43,605 nt of DNA, from positions 1 through 43,605 of IMG/VR virus record IMGVR_UViG_3300025162_000081; one strand, written 5' to 3'. The notes below the pieces were generated by a model that worked only from the letters and a program-made list of their open reading frames with translations, ran no database searches and was not told the origin of the DNA. Made by a program: the position numbers and the translations under genes. Source of the stretch: a virus. Within the stretch, counting starts at the first letter, position 1, and every line of letters starts with the position of its first letter. Of this stretch, positions 3,767-32,298 are shown one piece after another.

Positions 3767-4495
3767 TTATTTTTTATAGTTTACTGTGATGTAATTGTTT
3801 ATTTTATCTTCTAAATCTTTATTAATCCATTCAATATAACCGTTTATAATACCTTTTCCAGGATTAAAATTTGGAAATCTTGTGTCATTTACTTTTGGTA
3901 ATTCGTCTCCAATCTTACGACCAATATAATTTTCAATTATTGCTTTTTGATTATTAAAATCTAGTAAAATATCTTCATAGTTTAATACAAGTAAATTATC
4001 TTGATATTTTAACCAACCATCAATATGCATTTTCCATCTATGTATATAATTGTCTGGTTCTATTATAATGTGAGGGTCTGGTGAATATGGTGGCAAAAAT
4101 TGTCGTCCAACATCATCTGGCTTCATAAATATCCAATCTTCAAATTTTGGAAATTTACCTAAATCTTCTGGAAATGGTATAAATTTATAATAACTAACAA
4201 GAACATCTTTTAGATTTCTTTTAAGATAAATAACTTTATATTTATCAAAAACAATATCTAAATATGGTTCCATAAATTCTACTTGATGATGTGATTTACA
4301 TACAATATCTTCTATATAAGAATTAACTACAATATCTTTATAAACTTGATGTTCATAATTAGATAAAGTATAAGGTATAGTATTTATTGGAATAAATCCA
4401 ATGGTACGAAATTGACCAAAATTGTATTGGTTTATAATGTTGATTAGTAGATGTGTACCTGAGCGTTCGTGAGTGATTACTAATATTGGTTTCAT
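3767..4495 (-). CDS. sulfotransferase-family protein
   Basis: 5'-PSB-like P-loop 'THERSGTHLL' near the N-terminus and a 3'-PB-like 'YLKRNLKDVLVSYY' (R-x-x-K-D-x-x-V-S). 242 aa. Confidence 0.5.
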   Translation of the reverse strand: MKPILVITHERSGTHLLINIINQYNFGQFRTIGFIPINTIPYTLSNYEHQVYKDIVVNSYIEDIVCKSHHQVEFMEPYLDIVFDKYKVIYLKRNLKDVLVSYYKFIPFPEDLGKFPKFEDWIFMKPDDVGRQFLPPYSPDPHIIIEPDNYIHRWKMHIDGWLKYQDNLLVLNYEDILLDFNNQKAIIENYIGRKIGDELPKVNDTRFPNFNPGKGIINGYIEWINKDLEDKINNYITVNYKK

Positions 4496-4528: not shown

Positions 4529-5776
4529 TTAAAAATTACAAACTCTAACAGGAGTTAATCTTTGTAATGTAGTATTATCACCCAATTGTCCATAATTATT
4601 AACTCCCCAAGTCCAAACATGTCCATTATAATCTATTGCAGATGCATTATAAACACCTGCTGACAAATAACAAAATGTCTTTTTTGCACCTTGTATTGAC
4701 ACTGGTGTACAAATTGATGATGTAGAATTATTACCCAAATATCCATTAACATTAGAACCCCAGCCCCATATTTGTCCATTATTATCTAAACCAAGAGTAT
4801 AATGAAATTTTCCTGTTGAAATTTGACAAAATGTTTTTTTTGCACCTTTTATTGATACTGGTGTATATCTTGATACCGTTGAGTTGTCTCCCAATTCACC
4901 ATATCCATTAAGACCCCAACACCATATTTGTCCATTTTTATCTATTGCCGATACATTATCATTACCCACTGATATTTGACAAAATGTCTTTTTAGCACCT
5001 TGAATTGATACTGGCGTACATGTACATATTATTGAATTATTACCTAATTGACCATATTTGTTATATCCCCAACCCCAAGCTTGTCCTTTATAATCTATAC
5101 CACTTGAATGATAATGAGTACCAATTGAAATTTGGCAAAATGTTTTTTTGTTACCTTGTATTGATATTGGCGTGCGTTTTGATGTTGTGGAATTATCACC
5201 TAAACAACCAAAATTATTATACCCCCAACCCCATAATATTCCATTTTTATCTATTCCAAATCCCAAATAACTACCTGCTGATATTTGGCAAAATGTTTTT
5301 TTGTTACCTTGTATTGATACAGGTGTACATTTTGATGTTGTGGAATTATTACCTAACATTCCATAATAATTATACCCCCAACCCCATATTTGCCCATTTT
5401 TATCTATTCCAAAAGAATATTGTTCCGAAGAACTTGTGTATACCTTACAAAAAGTTTTTTTAGCACCCTGTATTGATACTGGTATACAAGTTGATACAGT
5501 AGAATTATTACCTAATTGACCTTTTGTATTATACCCCCAAGCCCAAGTTTGTCCACTCTTCAATAATATATTGCCAAATCCAGAACTAATCATCATAGCG
5601 ACCCCCCAAGGTGCTGGTGCTGTATAGACCCAATTACTATAATATCCCATACTTGTGAGCCAAGTTTGAGCAGATAAAGCATTAGGTAAATTGGTATGAA
5701 ATGCTCTATTAACAACAGTTAAAAAAGCAGCATCAGATTTACCAATAGAACGCCAGAAAGAAGGTTGAATTGACAT
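4529..5776 (-). CDS. RCC1 / alpha-tubulin-suppressor-like repeat protein (about 7 repeats)
   Basis: Repeated 'WGWGYN.(Y/K)GQLGNNST.S.CTPVSIQG.KKTFC' units (RCC1 signature G.N..GQLG). The underlying ~150-bp DNA units are near-identical tandem repeats across about 4560..5560. Confidence 0.7.
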   Translation of the reverse strand: MSIQPSFWRSIGKSDAAFLTVVNRAFHTNLPNALSAQTWLTSMGYYSNWVYTAPAPWGVAMMISSGFGNILLKSGQTWAWGYNTKGQLGNNSTVSTCIPVSIQGAKKTFCKVYTSSSEQYSFGIDKNGQIWGWGYNYYGMLGNNSTTSKCTPVSIQGNKKTFCQISAGSYLGFGIDKNGILWGWGYNNFGCLGDNSTTSKRTPISIQGNKKTFCQISIGTHYHSSGIDYKGQAWGWGYNKYGQLGNNSIICTCTPVSIQGAKKTFCQISVGNDNVSAIDKNGQIWCWGLNGYGELGDNSTVSRYTPVSIKGAKKTFCQISTGKFHYTLGLDNNGQIWGWGSNVNGYLGNNSTSSICTPVSIQGAKKTFCYLSAGVYNASAIDYNGHVWTWGVNNYGQLGDNTTLQRLTPVRVCNF

Positions 5777-11240: not shown

Positions 11241-11474
11241 GTGAAAACTTGTAAAAAGATTTCAACTGGAGAGATATTTGAATATGAACAATGTGTTTCT
11301 TATCCTGTATTTGATAGAACTCGAAATAACGGCACAATATATTTTGAATTAATTTCAAAAGGTAAGTTTGTTCTGGGTAAGTATATTGGTGAGGACGAAT
11401 TTTATGATGAATATATTGATATTAAAAAAGAAAGAAGACTTAAATTAGAAAAATTAAATCAAATTCTCCAATAA
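11241..11474 (+). CDS. hypothetical protein (GTG start) ending ..KKERRLKLEKLNQILQ (tail variant)
   Basis: No ATG start; weak. Confidence 0.25.
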   Translation: MKTCKKISTGEIFEYEQCVSYPVFDRTRNNGTIYFELISKGKFVLGKYIGEDEFYDEYIDIKKERRLKLEKLNQILQ

Positions 11475-12397
11475 AACCCTTTATATTTAGTATTTTTTGC
11501 TATCGCCTTTCTTAAGTTTTGAATACATATTTCATTATAATTTTTTATTTCCTTAATATTATTCCAAATCCTAACTATACTTCCTTTTTCGTCTATTTGT
11601 TTAATGTTAGTATATTCTCTCGTATTTAAATTTAATTTTTTAATATTATTCTCAATTTCGGCTTTTTCTAAAAAGTTTAATGAATAATAATAATTTTTAG
11701 CATGCCTACATCTATCTTGTAAAACGAAACTTATAGAACGTGGATTAACATTCATTTCTCTTGAGCATTCTTTTATACTGTTAAATTTTTTTATATAATT
11801 TCCAAACATATCATATTGATATATCTCTATGTTTGTACATTTATTTTTATTATCTCTTATTGGTATATTATTTTCTTTTAATATTTTAGTAATAGTTTCT
11901 CTATCAATTTTTAATTCTATTGATATTTTTTTAATTGATAATTTATTAAAATATAATTCTTTAACTACATCAAGATATTTGCTCCTTTTTAATTTGTATG
12001 CTTTTGATACATTATTTCTATGTTCGTTTGTCCATTTCAATTCTAAATTTGTTGCCGCAAATGCTCTAGAATTATATCCATTTTTATAAGAGTTATATTC
12101 ATCAATATAATACTGTTCTCTTTTTATGCAACTATCACGATCACACTCTTCAATTATTTCAAATATTATATTATCAATTCCATACTTATTGACCGCATTT
12201 TGTAAAGAAGGTGAGTTAGATATATTTTTTGATAGTTTTAAAATATGACTGAGCCATCTTTTATGAAACCCATTTTTATTAGAAGTACTACCAATATAAA
12301 CTTTACCATTATTGTTAATAAAACTTATCTTATATACACCAATACTTTTAGGGAATATTTTTTTATCATTTATCGTATATTTCATTTTATATTTCAT
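11459..12397 (-). CDS. GIY-YIG homing endonuclease with NUMOD1-type C-terminal DNA-binding modules
   Basis: N-terminus IGVYKISFINNNGKVYIGSTSN....R...H is the GIY-YIG motif. C-terminal ..KGFYWRI helix module. Confidence 0.8.
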   Translation of the reverse strand: MKYKMKYTINDKKIFPKSIGVYKISFINNNGKVYIGSTSNKNGFHKRWLSHILKLSKNISNSPSLQNAVNKYGIDNIIFEIIEECDRDSCIKREQYYIDEYNSYKNGYNSRAFAATNLELKWTNEHRNNVSKAYKLKRSKYLDVVKELYFNKLSIKKISIELKIDRETITKILKENNIPIRDNKNKCTNIEIYQYDMFGNYIKKFNSIKECSREMNVNPRSISFVLQDRCRHAKNYYYSLNFLEKAEIENNIKKLNLNTREYTNIKQIDEKGSIVRIWNNIKEIKNYNEICIQNLRKAIAKNTKYKGFYWRI

Positions 12398-12399
12398 TT

Positions 12400-12570
12400 T
12401 TATAAAATAACATTATCTGTATTTATATTATTGTTATGAAGATATTCTAATATTATATATTCTATCAATCGGCTTTTATTTGTAGATAATTCATCAATTC
12501 TTTTTAAAATTTCACGATTTATAGTGATATTTATTTTTCTTTTCAGTTTTTTATTTGTAATATTGTCCAT
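12400..12570 (-). CDS. ribbon-helix-helix (CopG/Arc-like) small protein, 56 aa, directly upstream of the GIY-YIG gene
   Basis: Own translation: MDNITNKKLKRKINITINREILKRIDELSTNKSRLIEYIILEYLHNNNINTDNVIL. Beta-strand INITINREIL then two helices, the typical RHH layout. Stop is 2 nt before the endonuclease ATG. Below the ORF-track size cut-off. Confidence 0.45.
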   Translation of the reverse strand: MDNITNKKLKRKINITINREILKRIDELSTNKSRLIEYIILEYLHNNNINTDNVIL

Positions 12571-12640
12571 AATTAAAATGTTTTTATTTATATATAAATA
12601 TTTAAAAATGAAAAAGTGTGATTTCTATACACATTTTATA

Positions 12641-12670
12641 AAATTAACATAAATTAACATAAATTAACAA
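12641..12670 (+). repeat. 3 perfect tandem 10-bp repeats AAATTAACAT / AAATTAACAT / AAATTAACAA ending 8 nt before the ATG of the RHH gene (candidate operator)
   Basis: Exact 10-bp phasing (one helical turn). A related TTAACATTA x3 set is at 18315..18344. Confidence 0.6.
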
Positions 12671-12677
12671 TAAGAAT

Positions 12678-12848
12678 ATGCCTAGAAAAAAAATGCCAGA
12701 CGAAGAAAAAAAAACAAGATTAACATTAAAAATAAATGATAATCTACTTCATAAATTTGATAGCCTATTAAAATTAGATGATAAAAAAAGATCAACTAAA
12801 ATTGAAGAATTATTACAAGAATATATTAATAAAAGAAATAATGACTGA
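12678..12848 (+). CDS. ribbon-helix-helix small protein, 56 aa (candidate antitoxin or repressor)
   Basis: Own translation: MPRKKMPDEEKKTRLTLKINDNLLHKFDSLLKLDDKKRSTKIEELLQEYINKRNND. Stop TGA overlaps the ATG of the next gene (ATGACTGA). Confidence 0.5.
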   Translation: MPRKKMPDEEKKTRLTLKINDNLLHKFDSLLKLDDKKRSTKIEELLQEYINKRNND

Positions 12849-13452
12849 AGCAGAGAAAATATGTGATGAATTAAATATAGATTACTCTAAAGTTTTGAAC
12901 ATCTACATGTATGGTTCGAAAATTTACGGTACTAATGATGAGTTTTCTGATAGTGATTATATCATTGTTTTTAAATCGTCGTTGCTTCCAAGCGGCGCAT
13001 TTAGAGATAATGCTATTTCATCTGTGGATTATAGCACGCAAGCCGTTTGTTATTCAAGATCAGGCTTCATTGATGCAATAAACAACTACGAAATTGGTGC
13101 TTTAGAATGTATTTTCTTACCAGAAGATAAGATAGTTCAGAAGAAAATGAACTTTGGTATTACAAAATACAACGACAAAGAATTATCAAAAAAAATTATT
13201 CAAAAGGCATCTGCAAGTTGGCACTTTGCAACTTTAGCACACAAAGATGATAATATGGAATCTTGTGCTAAGAATGTTTTTCATGCTTTGAGAATTTTAG
13301 ATTTTGGTATTCAAGTTAAAAGAAACAAAACAATTGTCGATTATTCAAGTATGAATAAAATACAGGCTGAAATAATGAACAACTTTAATTATTTTAATCC
13401 ATATGATTATTATGATATGTTTATAAATTTAAGTGAGGAAATTAAGAAATGA
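12841..13452 (+). CDS. minimal nucleotidyltransferase (Pol-beta superfamily) with helical C-terminal domain
   Basis: hG[GS]x9-13DxD motif: YMYGSKIYGTNDEFSDSDYIIVF. I prefer the 12841 start (MTEAEK..), coupled to the RHH stop, over the track's 12778 start, which would overlap the RHH ORF. Confidence 0.55.
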   Translation: MTEAEKICDELNIDYSKVLNIYMYGSKIYGTNDEFSDSDYIIVFKSSLLPSGAFRDNAISSVDYSTQAVCYSRSGFIDAINNYEIGALECIFLPEDKIVQKKMNFGITKYNDKELSKKIIQKASASWHFATLAHKDDNMESCAKNVFHALRILDFGIQVKRNKTIVDYSSMNKIQAEIMNNFNYFNPYDYYDMFINLSEEIKK

Positions 13453-13649: not shown

Positions 13650-14257
13650 AACCAATAATTTCACCAGTAATTCATATGTTAAATATGAATCAAGTCAGAG
13701 ATAATATTAATACTTGTTTAAGTGTTGGTATTGATCATGTTTTTATTATTAATCATGTTACAGGAGTCCCAGAATTGATTACTTGTACATTAAAAATGAG
13801 GGAAGAATTTCCTGATCTTTGGATAGGAATGAATGCGCTTGGTTATTATCCTTGGCAAGCACTTAATTTTGATTTAGATATTAATGCGCTTTGGATTGAT
13901 GAAACAATAACTACGGAAGAAAGAAATTTCAAAGGACTTGTTTTTGGTGGGCTTGCATTCAAATATCAAAAACAACCAAGTGATATAGAATTAGCTTGTA
14001 AAGATGCAATTAAATTTACTAATGTGGCTTGTACAAGTGGGCCTGGCACTGGAAAAGCACCAGCTATTGAAAAAATAAAAACATTAAGACATTATCTTGG
14101 TGATCACCCATTAGCTATTGCTTCAGGTGTTTCAGTTGATAATGTTCATTTGTATTCAGAATATGTTGATTATTTGATGGTTGCATCTAGCATAACAGAT
14201 AAAAATGAAATGATTAATAAAGATAAATTATATCACTTGTATGAAAGAATTATGTGA
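13646..14257 (+). CDS. predicted TIM-barrel protein, BtpA/SgcQ-family-like
   Basis: N-terminus KPIISPVIHML resembles BtpA KPIIGMLHL. G-rich phosphate-binding-like TSGPGTGKAP and ASGVSVDNV near the C-terminus. Assignment tentative. Confidence 0.35.
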   Translation: MKPIISPVIHMLNMNQVRDNINTCLSVGIDHVFIINHVTGVPELITCTLKMREEFPDLWIGMNALGYYPWQALNFDLDINALWIDETITTEERNFKGLVFGGLAFKYQKQPSDIELACKDAIKFTNVACTSGPGTGKAPAIEKIKTLRHYLGDHPLAIASGVSVDNVHLYSEYVDYLMVASSITDKNEMINKDKLYHLYERIM

Positions 14258-14501
14258 TTGTGGTAAAATTGCAATTTGGTTTTATGCGCCAGTAACTGAT
14301 ATTAAGAGAAATCCTTACTATTGTGATGGTTGTGTGCCAAGAGGTTGCTCTTGTAATCATTATCATGTAGATGAAAATGTACATTCTGAAGAAGATCAAC
14401 CTATAAAATGGATAGAAGAAGATAAAGTTTGGTGTAGTGTTGATGAACAAGGTAGAGAATATCCTTGTTGTGAATATTGGTATGATGAATATGGATGGTA
14501 A
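14241..14501 (+). CDS. Cys-rich small protein (CDCG .. CDGC .. CSC .. CC)
   Basis: 86 aa with at least 9 Cys in paired motifs. Confidence 0.4.
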   Translation: MKELCDCGKIAIWFYAPVTDIKRNPYYCDGCVPRGCSCNHYHVDENVHSEEDQPIKWIEEDKVWCSVDEQGREYPCCEYWYDEYGW

Positions 14502-14549
14502 GTTGAAGAATAAAAAAAGCCTCAAAGATGGATGGGAAGTTGAAGAATA

Positions 14550-14584
14550 AAAAAAGCCTCAAATTTTGAGGCTTTTTTTATTTG
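14550..14584. terminator. bidirectional intrinsic terminator AAAAAAGCCTCAAA-TT-TTGAGGCTTTTTTTA between convergent genes
   Basis: Perfect stem with A-tract and T-tract. The 26-bp unit AGTTGAAGAATAAAAAAAGCCTCAAA is duplicated directly upstream (about 14497..14522). Confidence 0.65.
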
Positions 14585-15003
14585 TTATCTCTATTTTTAC
14601 CTAGATGATATCCATCACAGTAAATACATTTATACACTGAAAAATGTTTATCCATTTTTTTCGCCATACTATCTGCAGCTTTCTTTGCTGTTTCCTTAGT
14701 ATTATACATCACCTTTAGTTTACCATCCTCTCTCTGGTGACTTCTAATACTAAATAGACCCATTGCGTTGCCTGTAATAAAAAAGTTCTTAAAGGCTCTC
14801 TTTAATGGTAATTGTTCTTTAAGTCCAAGAAACAAATTTTCAACTTTAATTTTCTTATATTTTAATAATAAGTCAATTGCAATCCACAAAATTGCTAATA
14901 TACTACAAATAGCGCCAAACCACAAATAAAATTGGTGTATATGGTAAATAACTAACCATACACTAAGTAACAATATAAATAACGGATATTTTAATGTTTT
15001 CAT
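14578..15003 (-). CDS. membrane protein with C-terminal Cys motif (..YKCIYCDGYH)
   Basis: Two N-terminal TM segments. Confidence 0.45.
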   Translation of the reverse strand: MKTLKYPLFILLLSVWLVIYHIHQFYLWFGAICSILAILWIAIDLLLKYKKIKVENLFLGLKEQLPLKRAFKNFFITGNAMGLFSIRSHQREDGKLKVMYNTKETAKKAADSMAKKMDKHFSVYKCIYCDGYHLGKNRDNK

Positions 15004-17029: not shown

Positions 17030-18242
17030 ACTACTAAGTAGTTTCCTTACAAAGATTATACTTTATAAGAACTTTAGATAAATCTAAAGGCTCGTTCATA
17101 GAAGCAAAGTGATTTCCGAACCACCTATTCAATATATTTATGGCTGAATTTAAATCACGGTCTATAATTATGGTGTCTGATAACTGAACTTCCCTATTAC
17201 CAAGACTTATTTTATCTTTAAATAGTTTTCCAGTTAGACAGTTAATTTGTGTTGTCCATTTTTCATCAATTTTCACCAAGTTGGTATTTTTTGCTTGACA
17301 CTTATATGTAAGGAATTGTAGAAACATATTGATATTAGATTGACTAAATGACTTTCTAATACCTTTTTTATTCTCATTCACTCCTTCTGTTGACATTAGC
17401 CTCTTAACTGTTAGATCACCAACTACAATTGTATTGTAGTTCATATTCGATAACTTTTTACTCTGAATATGAAGAGTTTGTTTTATTTGTTCGTTCTTTT
17501 TATGATAACATTTATTTAATGTTTTTTTCAATAATAAGTTTCTATTTGATCCTTTTGTTGTTTTACTCCTTTTGTTTTGTATTTTTGCTATTTGTTTCTG
17601 ATAATAATCATTAATTTTTTTAGATTTATTTTTTAATACAATCATACCACCTTTATTATCTATTCCTGTTCCTAATTTACTTAACCCCAAATCAATAGCA
17701 AGAACTTTAGTTTTAACATTAACATCATTAAAATATTCTATTTTATCGTCAATCACCAAATCACACAACCATTTATGTCTAATAAATTTAATTCTTATTT
17801 CTTTTATTTTTAAATCTTTAATATTTAAATTTGATTTATATTCAAATGGAATTTGATTTAGAAAGAACAATCCTTTTTTTATCATCCATCCTGATTGATT
17901 AAAAGAAATAGTATGAAAATAATTATTTTCTATTTTTCTTGGTGGTTTAGCATTTTTATCTTTTTTTATCAAATTAAAAAATGACCTATAAGATCCATAT
18001 AATTCTGTTGCTATTGTTTGAATTGCCTTTGAATTTAATTTCTTCCAATCTGGATATTCTTCTTTTAATAATGGTAATAAATTATTTAACTTGAATTTAT
18101 CTAAAATTATTTTATCTGTTTCATATTTATCTTGTTGTATATCAAGCAATTTATTCCATATATCTTTACGAATATCAGATAATTCTTGTAATTCAAGAAT
18201 TTGTTCTTTTGATGGAAATAATCTTATTTGATACGTCTTCAT
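17030..18242 (-). mobile_element. IS200/IS605-family tnpB-only (IS1341-like) element; ends not determined
   Basis: TnpB ORF with no adjacent tnpA. Its stop is only 5 nt from the convergent RNA-ligase stop, so any right-end/omega-RNA scaffold must overlap 3' sequence there. Confidence 0.3.
17034..18242 (-). CDS. tnpB: TnpB (IS605 OrfB) RuvC-like RNA-guided-nuclease family protein
   Basis: N-terminus MKTYQIRLFPSKEQ. RuvC-I VLAIDLGLSKLGTG. C-terminal CLTGK...IIDRDLNSAINIL (RuvC-III DRDxNAAxNI). 402 aa. Confidence 0.8.
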   Translation of the reverse strand: MKTYQIRLFPSKEQILELQELSDIRKDIWNKLLDIQQDKYETDKIILDKFKLNNLLPLLKEEYPDWKKLNSKAIQTIATELYGSYRSFFNLIKKDKNAKPPRKIENNYFHTISFNQSGWMIKKGLFFLNQIPFEYKSNLNIKDLKIKEIRIKFIRHKWLCDLVIDDKIEYFNDVNVKTKVLAIDLGLSKLGTGIDNKGGMIVLKNKSKKINDYYQKQIAKIQNKRSKTTKGSNRNLLLKKTLNKCYHKKNEQIKQTLHIQSKKLSNMNYNTIVVGDLTVKRLMSTEGVNENKKGIRKSFSQSNINMFLQFLTYKCQAKNTNLVKIDEKWTTQINCLTGKLFKDKISLGNREVQLSDTIIIDRDLNSAINILNRWFGNHFASMNEPLDLSKVLIKYNLCKETT

Positions 18243-18314
18243 TTTACTTATACAACATTTTTTATACTATTATATATAAATATAATAAAATCAAAAAGGC
18301 TATTTTAGTGTCTT

Positions 18315-18344
18315 TTAACATTATTTAACATTAAATTAACATTA
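18315..18344 (+). repeat. three phased copies of TTAACATTA (spacing 10/11 bp) in the tnpB/NADAR divergent region
   Basis: Same core as the AAATTAACAT x3 array at 12641..12670. Confidence 0.5.
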
Positions 18345-18361
18345 AATATAAACAAATATTA

Positions 18362-19823: not shown

Positions 19824-20279
19824 TTAAAATTTAGAGAGCAATTTTTGTTCTCTAAATTTTTTCATAGAATTTGAGATTTTATTTTTTTGTTCCTCACTAA
19901 GTTTAGTATAAACTCTTCCATTTCTTGCAGATTGTATATGTTCAACTGACTTCTTTTTACCCTTTGATGCCTTAGACATTTTTTCTCTTGTCTCTACTGA
20001 AAATATCCTACCAGTGCAACCTTTTCTTATTTTTTCTTTTCTATCATTTGATAACTTGGTACCTGTTAATGTTTTTGATATTTTTTCTTTAGTTTCATCA
20101 CTTAATGGTCCTTTTAGTACACCCTTTAATCTTTTTGACATTTTTTCTTTTGATTCTTCACTCATTTTTTGACCCTTATGTGACTCTGAATTTTTTAATG
20201 TGTGTTCAATTGATTTTTTCTTACCCTTTAATGCAGCAGACATCTTCAATTTTGTTTCTTCAGTATGATGATATCCCAT
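19824..20279 (-). CDS. free-standing NUMOD3-repeat protein (about 5 repeats)
   Basis: EETKLKMSAALKGKKKS / SEESKEKMSKRLKG / SDETKEKISKTLTG / SVETREKMSKASKGKKKS / SEEQKNKISNSMKK. Confidence 0.5.
   Translation of the reverse strand: MGYHHTEETKLKMSAALKGKKKSIEHTLKNSESHKGQKMSEESKEKMSKRLKGVLKGPLSDETKEKISKTLTGTKLSNDRKEKIRKGCTGRIFSVETREKMSKASKGKKKSVEHIQSARNGRVYTKLSEEQKNKISNSMKKFREQKLLSKF
19829..19866 (+). terminator. candidate intrinsic terminator TTAGAGA-gcaatttttgt-TCTCTAA + T-tract
   Basis: Follows stop 19818. Overlaps the last codons of the convergent minus gene. Confidence 0.3.
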
Positions 20280-30538: not shown

Positions 30539-30595
30539 CTTTGAAAATGTTAAAATACGACTTATTTATATTTATATATACATATAAAACTTTGT

Positions 30596-30739
30596 ATGAA
30601 AATTCAAAAAACATTCACAATTGAAGAAGATATTTCTAAGGAATTTGATAAAATATCAAAAGAGAAATCAATTAATAAATCTTTATTTTTAGAAAATGCA
30701 ATGAAAGATTTTATTGAAAAAAATAAGAAAGAAAAATGA
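30596..30739 (+). CDS. ribbon-helix-helix small protein, 47 aa, directly upstream of a GIY-YIG gene
   Basis: Own translation: MKIQKTFTIEEDISKEFDKISKEKSINKSLFLENAMKDFIEKNKKEK. Stop TGA overlaps endonuclease ATG (ATGA). Confidence 0.45.
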   Translation: MKIQKTFTIEEDISKEFDKISKEKSINKSLFLENAMKDFIEKNKKEK

Positions 30740-31386
30740 TAGGTATATACAAAATTACAAATATTATAAATAATAAATGTTATATAGGTTCATCAGTAGA
30801 TATTGTAGGTAGATGGTATCATCATAAAACAACATTAAAATTTAATAAACATCATTCAATAAAATTACAAAGATCCTATAATAAATACGGTTCAGATAAT
30901 TTTAAGTATGAAATTGTAGAAGAATGTGAAACAGAATTATTATTAATTAGAGAAGAATACTATATCAACTTATTTGATTGTTATAATAATGGATATAATT
31001 TTTCAATACCATCGAATTGTGTTATGCTTGGCAGACATCATAGTGAAGAAACAAAAGAAATACTTAGAGAAAAAAGTAAGGGTAATAAAAATAGATTAAA
31101 TATGACATTTAGTGATGAATCTAAAAAGAAAATAAGTGACAAATTAAAAGGACGGAAATTGTCAGATGAAACTAAACTAAATATGAGCAAAGGACAGAAG
31201 AATAGAATTTATTCAGACGAAGACTTGAAAAAAATTACTGAAATAAATAAATCTAGAATAGGAATACCGTTATCAGATGAGCATAAACTTAAATTAAGTT
31301 TAGCAAAAGTAGGAAAGAAACAAAGTCCAGAAACTATTGCAAAAAGAGTACAAAAAAACACTGGTCAAAAAAGAAAAAAAACTTAA
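30736..31386 (+). CDS. GIY-YIG homing endonuclease with NUMOD3 repeats
   Basis: MIGIYKITNIINNKCYIGSSVDIVGRWYHH (GIY..YIG..R..H). Several SEETK/SDESKKKIS/SDETK NUMOD3 repeats in the C-terminal half. Confidence 0.8.
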   Translation: MIGIYKITNIINNKCYIGSSVDIVGRWYHHKTTLKFNKHHSIKLQRSYNKYGSDNFKYEIVEECETELLLIREEYYINLFDCYNNGYNFSIPSNCVMLGRHHSEETKEILREKSKGNKNRLNMTFSDESKKKISDKLKGRKLSDETKLNMSKGQKNRIYSDEDLKKITEINKSRIGIPLSDEHKLKLSLAKVGKKQSPETIAKRVQKNTGQKRKKT

Positions 31387-31449
31387 TTATTTTTATTACT
31401 ATATAGTATGTGGAATTTTCCGCAAATAAAAATAAATAATAAATTAAAA

Positions 31450-31647
31450 ATGAGTAAATTGAATGGAAAAGTCAAATTTTTTTCTGATAAAGGATTTGGC
31501 TTCATCGTTGAAAATCAAACAGGTGTAGAAGTATTCGTACACGCTACAGGTTTGCTTGATGAAATCAGAGAGAATGACGAAGTTGAGTATGAAGTTGTGC
31601 CAGGTAAAAAAGGCAACAATGCAGTGAATGTTAGAGTTTTAAACTAA
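31450..31647 (+). CDS. cold-shock protein (CspA family)
   Basis: MSKLNGKVKFFSDKGFGFI..VFVHAT. RNP1 KGFGFI and RNP2-like VFVH. 65 aa. Track start 31408 is an upstream in-frame ATG. Confidence 0.8.
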   Translation: MSKLNGKVKFFSDKGFGFIVENQTGVEVFVHATGLLDEIRENDEVEYEVVPGKKGNNAVNVRVLN

Positions 31648-31890: not shown

Positions 31891-32298
31891 TCATTTCTGG
31901 TAATATAGTTCTTTGATTTGCCATTGTCTAATAATTATTTTTTGGTTTTGATTAATAAATAAAGCGTCACATAACCTATCTTTACTCTTTATATCTCTTT
32001 TAATATTCCATTCAACAAACTTTCTTTTTGTTAAAAACTTAATGTTGTGTATTTCTTCTATTTTAGTGATGTCTTTGAAATATTCATCATTTAGATAATA
32101 AACATCTTGAAAATCAGTATTATCAAATACAAAAATTAGCTTACTATCTAAGTGATTTCTTAGAATGTCAGCTAATTTCCAGTTTTTATTTTGTCTTGTA
32201 AGTTTCCTAATTTCTAGGACTTCATCAACACATAATTTACATAATACATCATCAGTATCTGTACGTTCAAAACAAGAATATATAAATTCTAAATTCAT
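31891..32298 (-). CDS. hypothetical protein
   Basis: 135 aa. Confidence 0.4.
   Translation of the reverse strand: MNLEFIYSCFERTDTDDVLCKLCVDEVLEIRKLTRQNKNWKLADILRNHLDSKLIFVFDNTDFQDVYYLNDEYFKDITKIEEIHNIKFLTKRKFVEWNIKRDIKSKDRLCDALFINQNQKIIIRQWQIKELYYQK

Follow-up and report, generated by a model that had tools for sequence, protein, structure and literature searches.

Small ribbon-helix-helix genes precede exchangeable homing endonuclease genes in large uncultured phages

Homing endonuclease genes rank with the most common selfish genes of phages, and how a carrier is spared the harm of a free-standing homing endonuclease gene (HEG) is only partly understood. In positions 1 to 43,605 of the IMG/VR virus record IMGVR_UViG_3300025162_000081, a stretch referred to here as the window, two of three GIY-YIG HEGs lie directly behind a very small gene for a putative ribbon-helix-helix (RHH) protein. 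The question that this raises is whether the small genes are real and, if so, what they might do for the nucleases that follow them. An ORF check agreed with the layout of both pairs given in an earlier note on this DNA: the 56-aa gene at 12400..12570 (-), which we have designated RHH-a, ends 2 nt before the GIY-YIG gene 11459..12397, and the 47-aa gene at 30596..30739 (+), designated RHH-c, shares an ATGA overlap with the GIY-YIG gene 30736..31386. Pfam analysis bore out that the third GIY-YIG gene, 37972..38742, has no upstream RHH gene. A third RHH gene, RHH-b, was absent from that note. The features concerned are as follows.

11459..12397, minus strand: free-standing HEG of 312 aa with GIY-YIG (6e-8) and NUMOD1 (1.9e-7) domains (Pfam)
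12400..12570, minus strand: RHH-a, 56-aa RHH gene heading the RHH-a/GIY-YIG pair
12571..12677, no strand: divergent control region of RHH-a and RHH-b, 107 bp
12678..12848, plus strand: RHH-b, 56 aa, divergent from RHH-a (Pfam RHH_1, E=0.02)
12841..13452, plus strand: nucleotidyltransferase-like gene of 203 aa (NTP_transf_2, 0.0024; phrog_388, 1.3e-11)
30545..30595, plus strand: RHH-c promoter/leader, candidate promoter and operator, conserved across loci
30596..30739, plus strand: RHH-c, 47-aa CopG/Arc-like RHH gene (Pfam RHH_3, 3.5e-5)
30736..31386, plus strand: I-TevI-like HEG of 216 aa with GIY-YIG (1.8e-8) and NUMOD3 (9e-7) domains (Pfam)
31408..31647, plus strand: cold-shock-domain (CSD) gene 3′ of the RHH-c/GIY-YIG module (Pfam CSD, 5e-15)
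37972..38742, plus strand: third GIY-YIG HEG, with a TTATATATA box 5 nt upstream (from 37959) and no RHH gene

All three GIY-YIG HEGs of the window were free-standing and joined a catalytic domain to NUMOD/HTH modules (Pfam, PHROG), and their products are presumably active nucleases. The gene 11459..12397 matched PHROG homing endonuclease families and 30736..31386 matched phrog_314 (6e-38). A search of the 347 window ORFs with family HMMs revealed no RHH paralogues beyond RHH-a, RHH-b and RHH-c. A gene for a cyclic-phosphate-processing receiver domain (38727-39095; cREC_REC, 2e-22) overlaps the third GIY-YIG gene at its 3′-end. Elsewhere in the window, a 151-aa ORF at 19824-20279 (-) consists of NUMOD3 repeats only and resembles the C-terminal half of the 30736 GIY-YIG protein (tblastn, 3e-9); it has neither a catalytic domain nor an upstream RHH gene and is either a HEG remnant or a domesticated DNA-binding protein.

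RHH-a and RHH-c are conserved genes under purifying selection, and not the chance AT-rich ORFs for which the earlier note had allowed. Homologues of RHH-a fell into 14 clusters (67-100% identity) with a median pairwise dN/dS of 0.154, and those of RHH-c into 42 clusters (62-98% identity) with a median of 0.18 (369 pairs). These relatives were found on contigs of up to 711 kb, and blastn of both RHH regions against phages gave weak matches only, to huge uncultured phages and HEG fragments. Used as a single protein, RHH-a found no match in the viral-contig scan, for which alignment queries were needed, and the RHH-a alignment found none in the genome-contig scan. A tblastn search of 50,697 GenBank phages did not find RHH-a; the sole RHH-c-like match (40% identity) was a domain of a larger protein encoded by LR756501, a 735-kb uncultured phage, with no HEG adjoining, and no cultured or annotated phage among the 50,697 carried an RHH-HEG module. 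This domain (L095:2495-2899) and a second distant relative of RHH-c (L042:3001-4335) share 35-40% identity with it and form the N-terminal domains of larger proteins. Neither is adjoined by a homing endonuclease, and the tight HEG association described below is confined to the closer RHH-c clade.

The RHH fold that had been proposed for both small proteins was recovered for RHH-c by profile and by model; for RHH-a it is probable from sequence profiles, the AF2 model being poor. RHH-c matched Pfam RHH_3 above the gathering score (E=3.5e-5), and its AF2 monomer model (pLDDT 82.8) showed an extended N-terminus followed by helices at residues 11-23 and 28-46, so that the protein is predicted to have the beta-strand, helix, helix order of an RHH of about 45 residues. 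A Foldseek search of the PDB with this model returned nearly all ribbon-helix-helix DNA binders, with CopG on top and CopA-SO (TM 0.74), Arc, ParD and NikR also listed, at E-values that were all weak (≥0.25) for so short a protein. A PDB profile search likewise placed CopG best (E=0.019, 24-26% identity). The case for RHH-a as an RHH protein is indirect and comes from family profiles. Its AF2 model was a single helix of low confidence (pLDDT 66), and 16 of the 17 family members matched Pfam CcdA below the cut-off. The RHH-a and RHH-b family profiles aligned with an hhalign probability of 96.5%, and RHH-b itself matched Pfam RHH_1 at E=0.02, a family whose cut-off is exceeded by RHH-b relatives.

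The best Pfam matches of RHH-a were the CcdA and HicB-like antitoxins, which bears on one alternative, namely that the RHH protein binds the nuclease protein, either neutralising it in the manner of a type II antitoxin or acting as an accessory subunit that targets it to DNA. The gene order and the 4-nt overlap resemble those of RHH-antitoxin/toxin operons, and the C-terminal tail of RHH-a, ..TDDIIL, is invariant, which would suit such a role. RHH-c, however, consists of a 45-residue DNA-binding fold only; in the AF2 model helix 2 ends at residue 46 of 47 and there is no toxin-binding extension. RHH-a, for its part, has no more than some 10 residues beyond the RHH domain. In addition, a single RHH, up to 93% identical between loci, would need to bind structurally unrelated nucleases, and the HEGs bring DNA-binding modules of their own (NUMOD1/3 and HTH). 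We regard this alternative as very improbable.

The association with homing endonucleases was examined by searches of public contigs in which the RHH sequences were the only queries and the neighbouring gene was thus not a selection criterion. The RHH-c family comprised 71 loci, of which 42 were non-redundant, and a putative HEG was the next gene at 40 of these 42. The co-occurrence that the earlier note had asked about was strongly borne out. The nuclease classes behind RHH-c, named from Pfam/PHROG profiles only, were distributed as follows.

DUF7487/phrog_3339-type: 18 loci
I-TevI-like GIY-YIG: 10 loci
Vsr-like (motif ELDIYLPE..EYDG..WH): 4 loci
DUF723/treble-clef type: 3 loci
HNH: 2 loci
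LEM-3-like GIY-YIG: 1 locus
SegE-like GIY-YIG: 1 locus
another GIY-YIG: 1 locus

At 36 of the 40 loci the start of the HEG overlapped the stop of RHH-c, most commonly by 4, 14 or 23 nt and over a range of 4-53 nt. One of the two exceptions, L078, retained the 3′ part of a DUF7487 HEG, namely its final ~90 codons (tblastn, 2.8e-16); at the other, L079, the next gene was not a putative HEG. RHH-a homologues precede six nuclease classes, among which the call at L008 is weak and the gene at L009 has no class name:

GIY-YIG+NUMOD1 enzyme
Vsr-like HEG (L007)
HNH-like gene (L008; weak, E=0.012)
GIY-YIG with N-terminal repeats (L010, L090/L091)
DUF723-type gene (L093/L094)
177-aa gene plus methyltransferase (L009)

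Thus the dedicated HEG partner suggested by the earlier note was upheld, and its restriction to GIY-YIG enzymes was not, at least eight HEG classes being exchanged behind a constant RHH. At every locus with upstream DNA, RHH-a was also paired with a divergent RHH-b; the pairing was seen in 4/4 IMG/VR contigs and was found independently with either protein. RHH-a and RHH-b form an obligate pair of divergent RHH genes. In the window, RHH-b overlaps the 203-aa nucleotidyltransferase-like gene (NTP_transf_2/Polbeta, phrog_388) by 8 nt. What lies behind RHH-b in relatives is a different gene or no gene at all, and the nucleotidyltransferase-like gene 12841..13452 is a neighbour that lies outside the HEG module.

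Alignment of the window with loci carrying unrelated HEGs showed nucleotide similarity confined to a stretch that begins 25-50 bp before the RHH-c ATG, at 30544-30573, and runs to the RHH stop. The constant part consists of about 45 bp of promoter/leader together with the RHH gene, and the nuclease behind it is exchanged. Unrelated nucleases were found behind RHHs up to 93% identical, and the nearest RHH relative agreed in HEG class in just 26 of 40 cases; the possibility that each RHH is bound to one nuclease family was rejected on these two counts. The genes flanking the promoter+RHH+HEG unit vary between loci. Loci L012-L018 retain the trio of RHH, GIY-YIG and CSD genes with differing upstream flanks, and the CSD gene 31408..31647 is possibly the target-side flank of the RHH-c module. 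The 135-aa flank gene 31891..32298 found no relatives when used as a query. At L088 the p115 and CSD flanks are present, RHH-c and the HEG are both gone, and a 134-aa membrane-protein gene is in their place. Since the flanks differ, the two genes are jointly absent at this syntenic site and nucleases are swapped, promoter, RHH and HEG behave as one accessory unit with exchangeable 3′ cargo, in line with the suggestion that the RHH gene is part of a mobile cassette. The HEGs are also polymorphic for presence and prone to decay among relatives (L010 vs L011, L078, L091, L088). In L011 the copy of the L010 HEG has suffered an internal deletion (4100-4330), in L078 a C-terminal HEG remnant is left (1250-1515) and in L091 the HEG ORF is split (462-1228); the RHH gene is intact in all three.

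An RHH that persists beside a decayed HEG could also mean that the RHHs are resident phage regulators, behind which many HEG families have inserted independently. The conserved RHH gene or its flank would then serve as the cleavage or insertion target, or as homology for recombination, and the RHH would be of no use to the nuclease. Such an arrangement would accord with the RHH-a/RHH-b pair, which is kept across distant phages as the gene after RHH-a varies, and with L019/L078, where a conserved divergent methyltransferase (60% identity) is the partner of the RHH. Free-standing HEGs, moreover, typically adjoin and overlap conserved genes (PMC2988022). Against it, no clean empty site, in which the downstream neighbour came straight after the RHH, was present in 42+ loci, L088 lacks both the RHH and the HEG, and the contexts of the unit are unrelated. 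Convergence on one target would also be required of at least eight nuclease classes that differ in their DNA-binding domains. Insertion behind a resident regulator consequently seems unlikely to us.

The control regions provide the remaining evidence on function. Upstream of RHH-c lies the motif TATATATACATATAAAAC (30573-30590), which in its exact form is unique in the window and is conserved in about 40 loci. Its core, TTATATATA, had 13 matches in the window against 5 expected. The box was located at 8 sites, all upstream of gene starts and including those of the RHH-less third GIY-YIG gene and a TnpB-like gene. We read the TTATATATA box as a probable promoter element. A scan for sigma-70 promoters performed no better than shuffles, so a promoter is inferred only from the conserved and enriched box. 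The terminator scan was also at shuffle level and placed no terminator-like site between RHH and HEG. The whole RHH-c upstream motif was considered as an RHH-specific operator and rejected, since its core is a general box and only the extended motif is specific.

In the control region shared by RHH-a and RHH-b, a perfect 16-bp palindrome, TATTTATATATAAATA (12585-12600), is centred on the TTATATATA box, though A/T palindromes occur often in DNA of this kind. At 12616-12632 there follows a conserved GTGT..ACAC block. Both the palindrome and the block are kept in L005-L007. A tandem repeat array ends 9 nt upstream of the RHH-b ATG, and in RHH-c relatives direct repeats of ~10 bp lie between the box and the ATG, where the window RHH-c leader has a single ATATAAAAC copy. 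The repeats were:

12641..12669, no strand: AAATTAACAT, 10-bp tandem repeat, 2.9 copies, candidate operator (100% matches, TRF)
L064 leader: AACTATAAAT, 3.5 copies
L037-39 leaders: AACAATAAAT, 2 copies
L078 leader: AAATACAAAT, 2 copies

Perfect tandem duplications of 9-11 nt were present in 6 of 41 leaders compared with 0.32 expected from shuffles, counts that ignore shared ancestry. The window also encodes a lone TnpB/Cas12f-like gene of 402 aa with OrfB_IS605 and TNB domains (17034..18242, -), which neither tnpA nor arc adjoins in the window. Upstream of it, a TTATATATA box (18270-18279) is joined by three TGTTAA repeats of ~10 bp each (18314-18347), a layout shared with the RHH-a/RHH-b control region.

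The leaders vary together with the N-terminal beta-strand of the RHH. ATAAAAC was present in the leaders of 20/22 [IVLT]Q-type RHHs and 0/8 KT-type RHHs, and all 8 KT-type leaders contained ATAAATAA[CA], with shared ancestry confounding both counts. Covariation of this kind would be expected of specificity groups and is compatible with immunity in trans, by which a resident RHH would silence HEGs with the same operator on co-infecting relatives and so spare its genome from cutting. This would be akin to repressor immunity against superinfection, with the RHH and operator shared among competing large phages. If true, the operator and beta-strand variants would be specificity groups in an arms race. 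It would also explain why RHH and leader are conserved far better than the nucleases, why one and the same RHH has repeatedly acquired unrelated nucleases behind it and why it stays intact after HEG loss, outlasting the decayed nuclease. The proposal is purely inferential, however; simple autorepression with recent decay fits the same facts, and the window has one member per RHH family. We hold immunity in trans to be decidedly unlikely.

In our judgement the RHH is rather likely, with considerable room for error, to act as a CopG/Arc-type autorepressor on an RHH-HEG operon whose two genes are translationally coupled. Each small RHH gene would be the leader cistron of a selfish module made up of promoter/operator, RHH repressor and homing endonuclease. 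Transcription would start from the AT-rich TTATATATA-type box, 5-30 nt upstream, and the RHH would be translated before the nuclease. The RHH stop and the HEG start overlap by 4-53 nt, and the nuclease would accordingly be produced by translational coupling. Dimers of the RHH are expected to bind the short repeats or palindromes at the promoter box and directly 3′ of it and to turn the operon off, so that the dosage and timing of the nuclease would be kept low and self-limiting. Promoter and RHH would form the portable conserved part, behind which different nuclease genes are recombined; in the 12400 module a second, divergent RHH (RHH-b) would operate on the same 107-bp control region. The 47-aa RHH-c is regulator-like in being a bare DNA-binding fold with CopG as its best solved match. 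Further regulator-like features are the exact upstream motif found once in the window, the covariation of leader and beta-strand, the tandem duplications in the leaders and the lack of a terminator-like site between RHH and HEG. The third GIY-YIG gene, which has the same TTATATATA box and no RHH, speaks against an autorepressor.

Autorepression by a small leader protein has several parallels, CopG limiting repB, C proteins limiting restriction genes and RHH antitoxins limiting toxin operons. CopG is a 45-aa RHH encoded by the first cistron of a two-gene operon of pMV158 (structures 1b01/2cpg); it represses its own promoter and limits RepB, the DNA-cleaving initiator. The likeness to RHH-c is that CopG is its best solved-structure match; the difference is that CopG-RepB controls plasmid copy number, whereas RHH-c fronts a homing endonuclease. 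C proteins and RHH antitoxins are small DNA-binding autoregulators whose genes directly precede, and frequently overlap, that of a toxic nuclease or a toxin. The resemblance to C proteins extends to methyltransferase genes sharing loci with the RHH in L009-L011 and L019/L078; C proteins, however, are helix-turn-helix and not RHH proteins. Type II antitoxins bind their toxin through a C-terminal extension, which RHH-c lacks. In immI of P22 (mnt, arc-ant), two divergent RHH repressors share a short control region and one of them leads an operon with harmful cargo. The order RHH-b, 107-bp control region, RHH-a, HEG is alike in architecture only, the cargo of immI being an antirepressor and that of RHH-a a nuclease.

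Methyltransferase genes (Eco57I-type, N6_N4 and N6-like) were observed at several RHH loci, where they lie 3′ of the HEG or point away from the RHH in divergent orientation, which suggests a possible link of RHH loci with restriction-modification-like modules. Their positions were:

L009:4234-5562, DNA methyltransferase gene
L010:5080-6210, DNA methyltransferase gene
L019:2648-3415, DNA methyltransferase gene
L078:309-1136, DNA methyltransferase gene

HEG expression is known to be tightly limited; in T4 this involves autorepression by I-TevI, RNA hairpins and ORF overlap (Edgell, Gibb, Belfort, PMC2988022). I-TevI binds an operator at the HEG's own promoter, and 5 of the 12 free-standing HEGs of T4 overlap an upstream ORF (PMC2988022). 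The I-TevI, seg and mob genes of T4 are thus similar to the RHH-HEG modules in that the HEG is kept low and overlaps, or is coupled to, an upstream ORF. In T4, however, the nuclease represses itself and the upstream ORFs are unrelated host-phage genes, whereas in the RHH-HEG modules a separate, dedicated and conserved RHH gene takes the place of the upstream ORF.

The closest experimental precedent is the Arc of IS605 elements. Arc-type RHH proteins bind and repress IS605 promoters (Moon, Zedaveinyte, Wiegand, Sternberg, bioRxiv 10.64898/2026.09.24.754181). Some are ≤50 aa and often unannotated, and the promoter of the element is often bidirectional (10.64898/2026.09.24.754181). As compared by description, IS605 Arc is like RHH-a and RHH-c a tiny RHH encoded in a selfish element beside a nuclease, and an RHH adjoined the nuclease gene of the element at 40/42 RHH-c loci and all RHH-a loci. 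The partners of IS605 Arc are the TnpA/TnpB of a transposon in bacterial genomes, whereas RHH-a and RHH-c are partnered in large phages by free-standing, protein-only HEGs that belong to at least eight classes, the RHH always lying ahead of the HEG and generally overlapping it. Moon et al. (2026) remark in passing that close Arc homologues adjoin homing endonuclease genes, an association that they neither analysed nor tested (10.64898/2026.09.24.754181). The claim that the arrangement was not a described one therefore holds apart from this remark, and no analysis of RHH-HEG modules was found in the literature. The RHH-HEG arrangement is real and widespread in this phage group, with an earlier mention only in passing. 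If the repressor role is true, a dedicated and portable repressor common to at least eight unrelated nuclease families would represent a new general control layer. The restraint of nucleases by Arc-type RHH proteins, seen in IS605, would also reach a second large class of mobile nucleases, and with it the huge uncultured phages. For annotation, a 45-56-aa RHH ORF with the conserved leader would then mark a HEG module; RHH ORFs of this size escape standard ORF cut-offs.

Two further repeats were seen in the window. The 153-nt tandem repeat at 4574-5555 corresponds to RCC1 repeats within a 415-aa gene, 4529..5776 (-). At 14491-14563 a 37-nt unit, ATGGATGGGAAGTTGAAGAATAAAAAAAGCCTCAAAG, is present in two copies (97% identical). 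The ORFs 14241..14501 (+) and 14250..14525 (-) overlap, and the copies lie at their ends, just before 14578..15003 (-).
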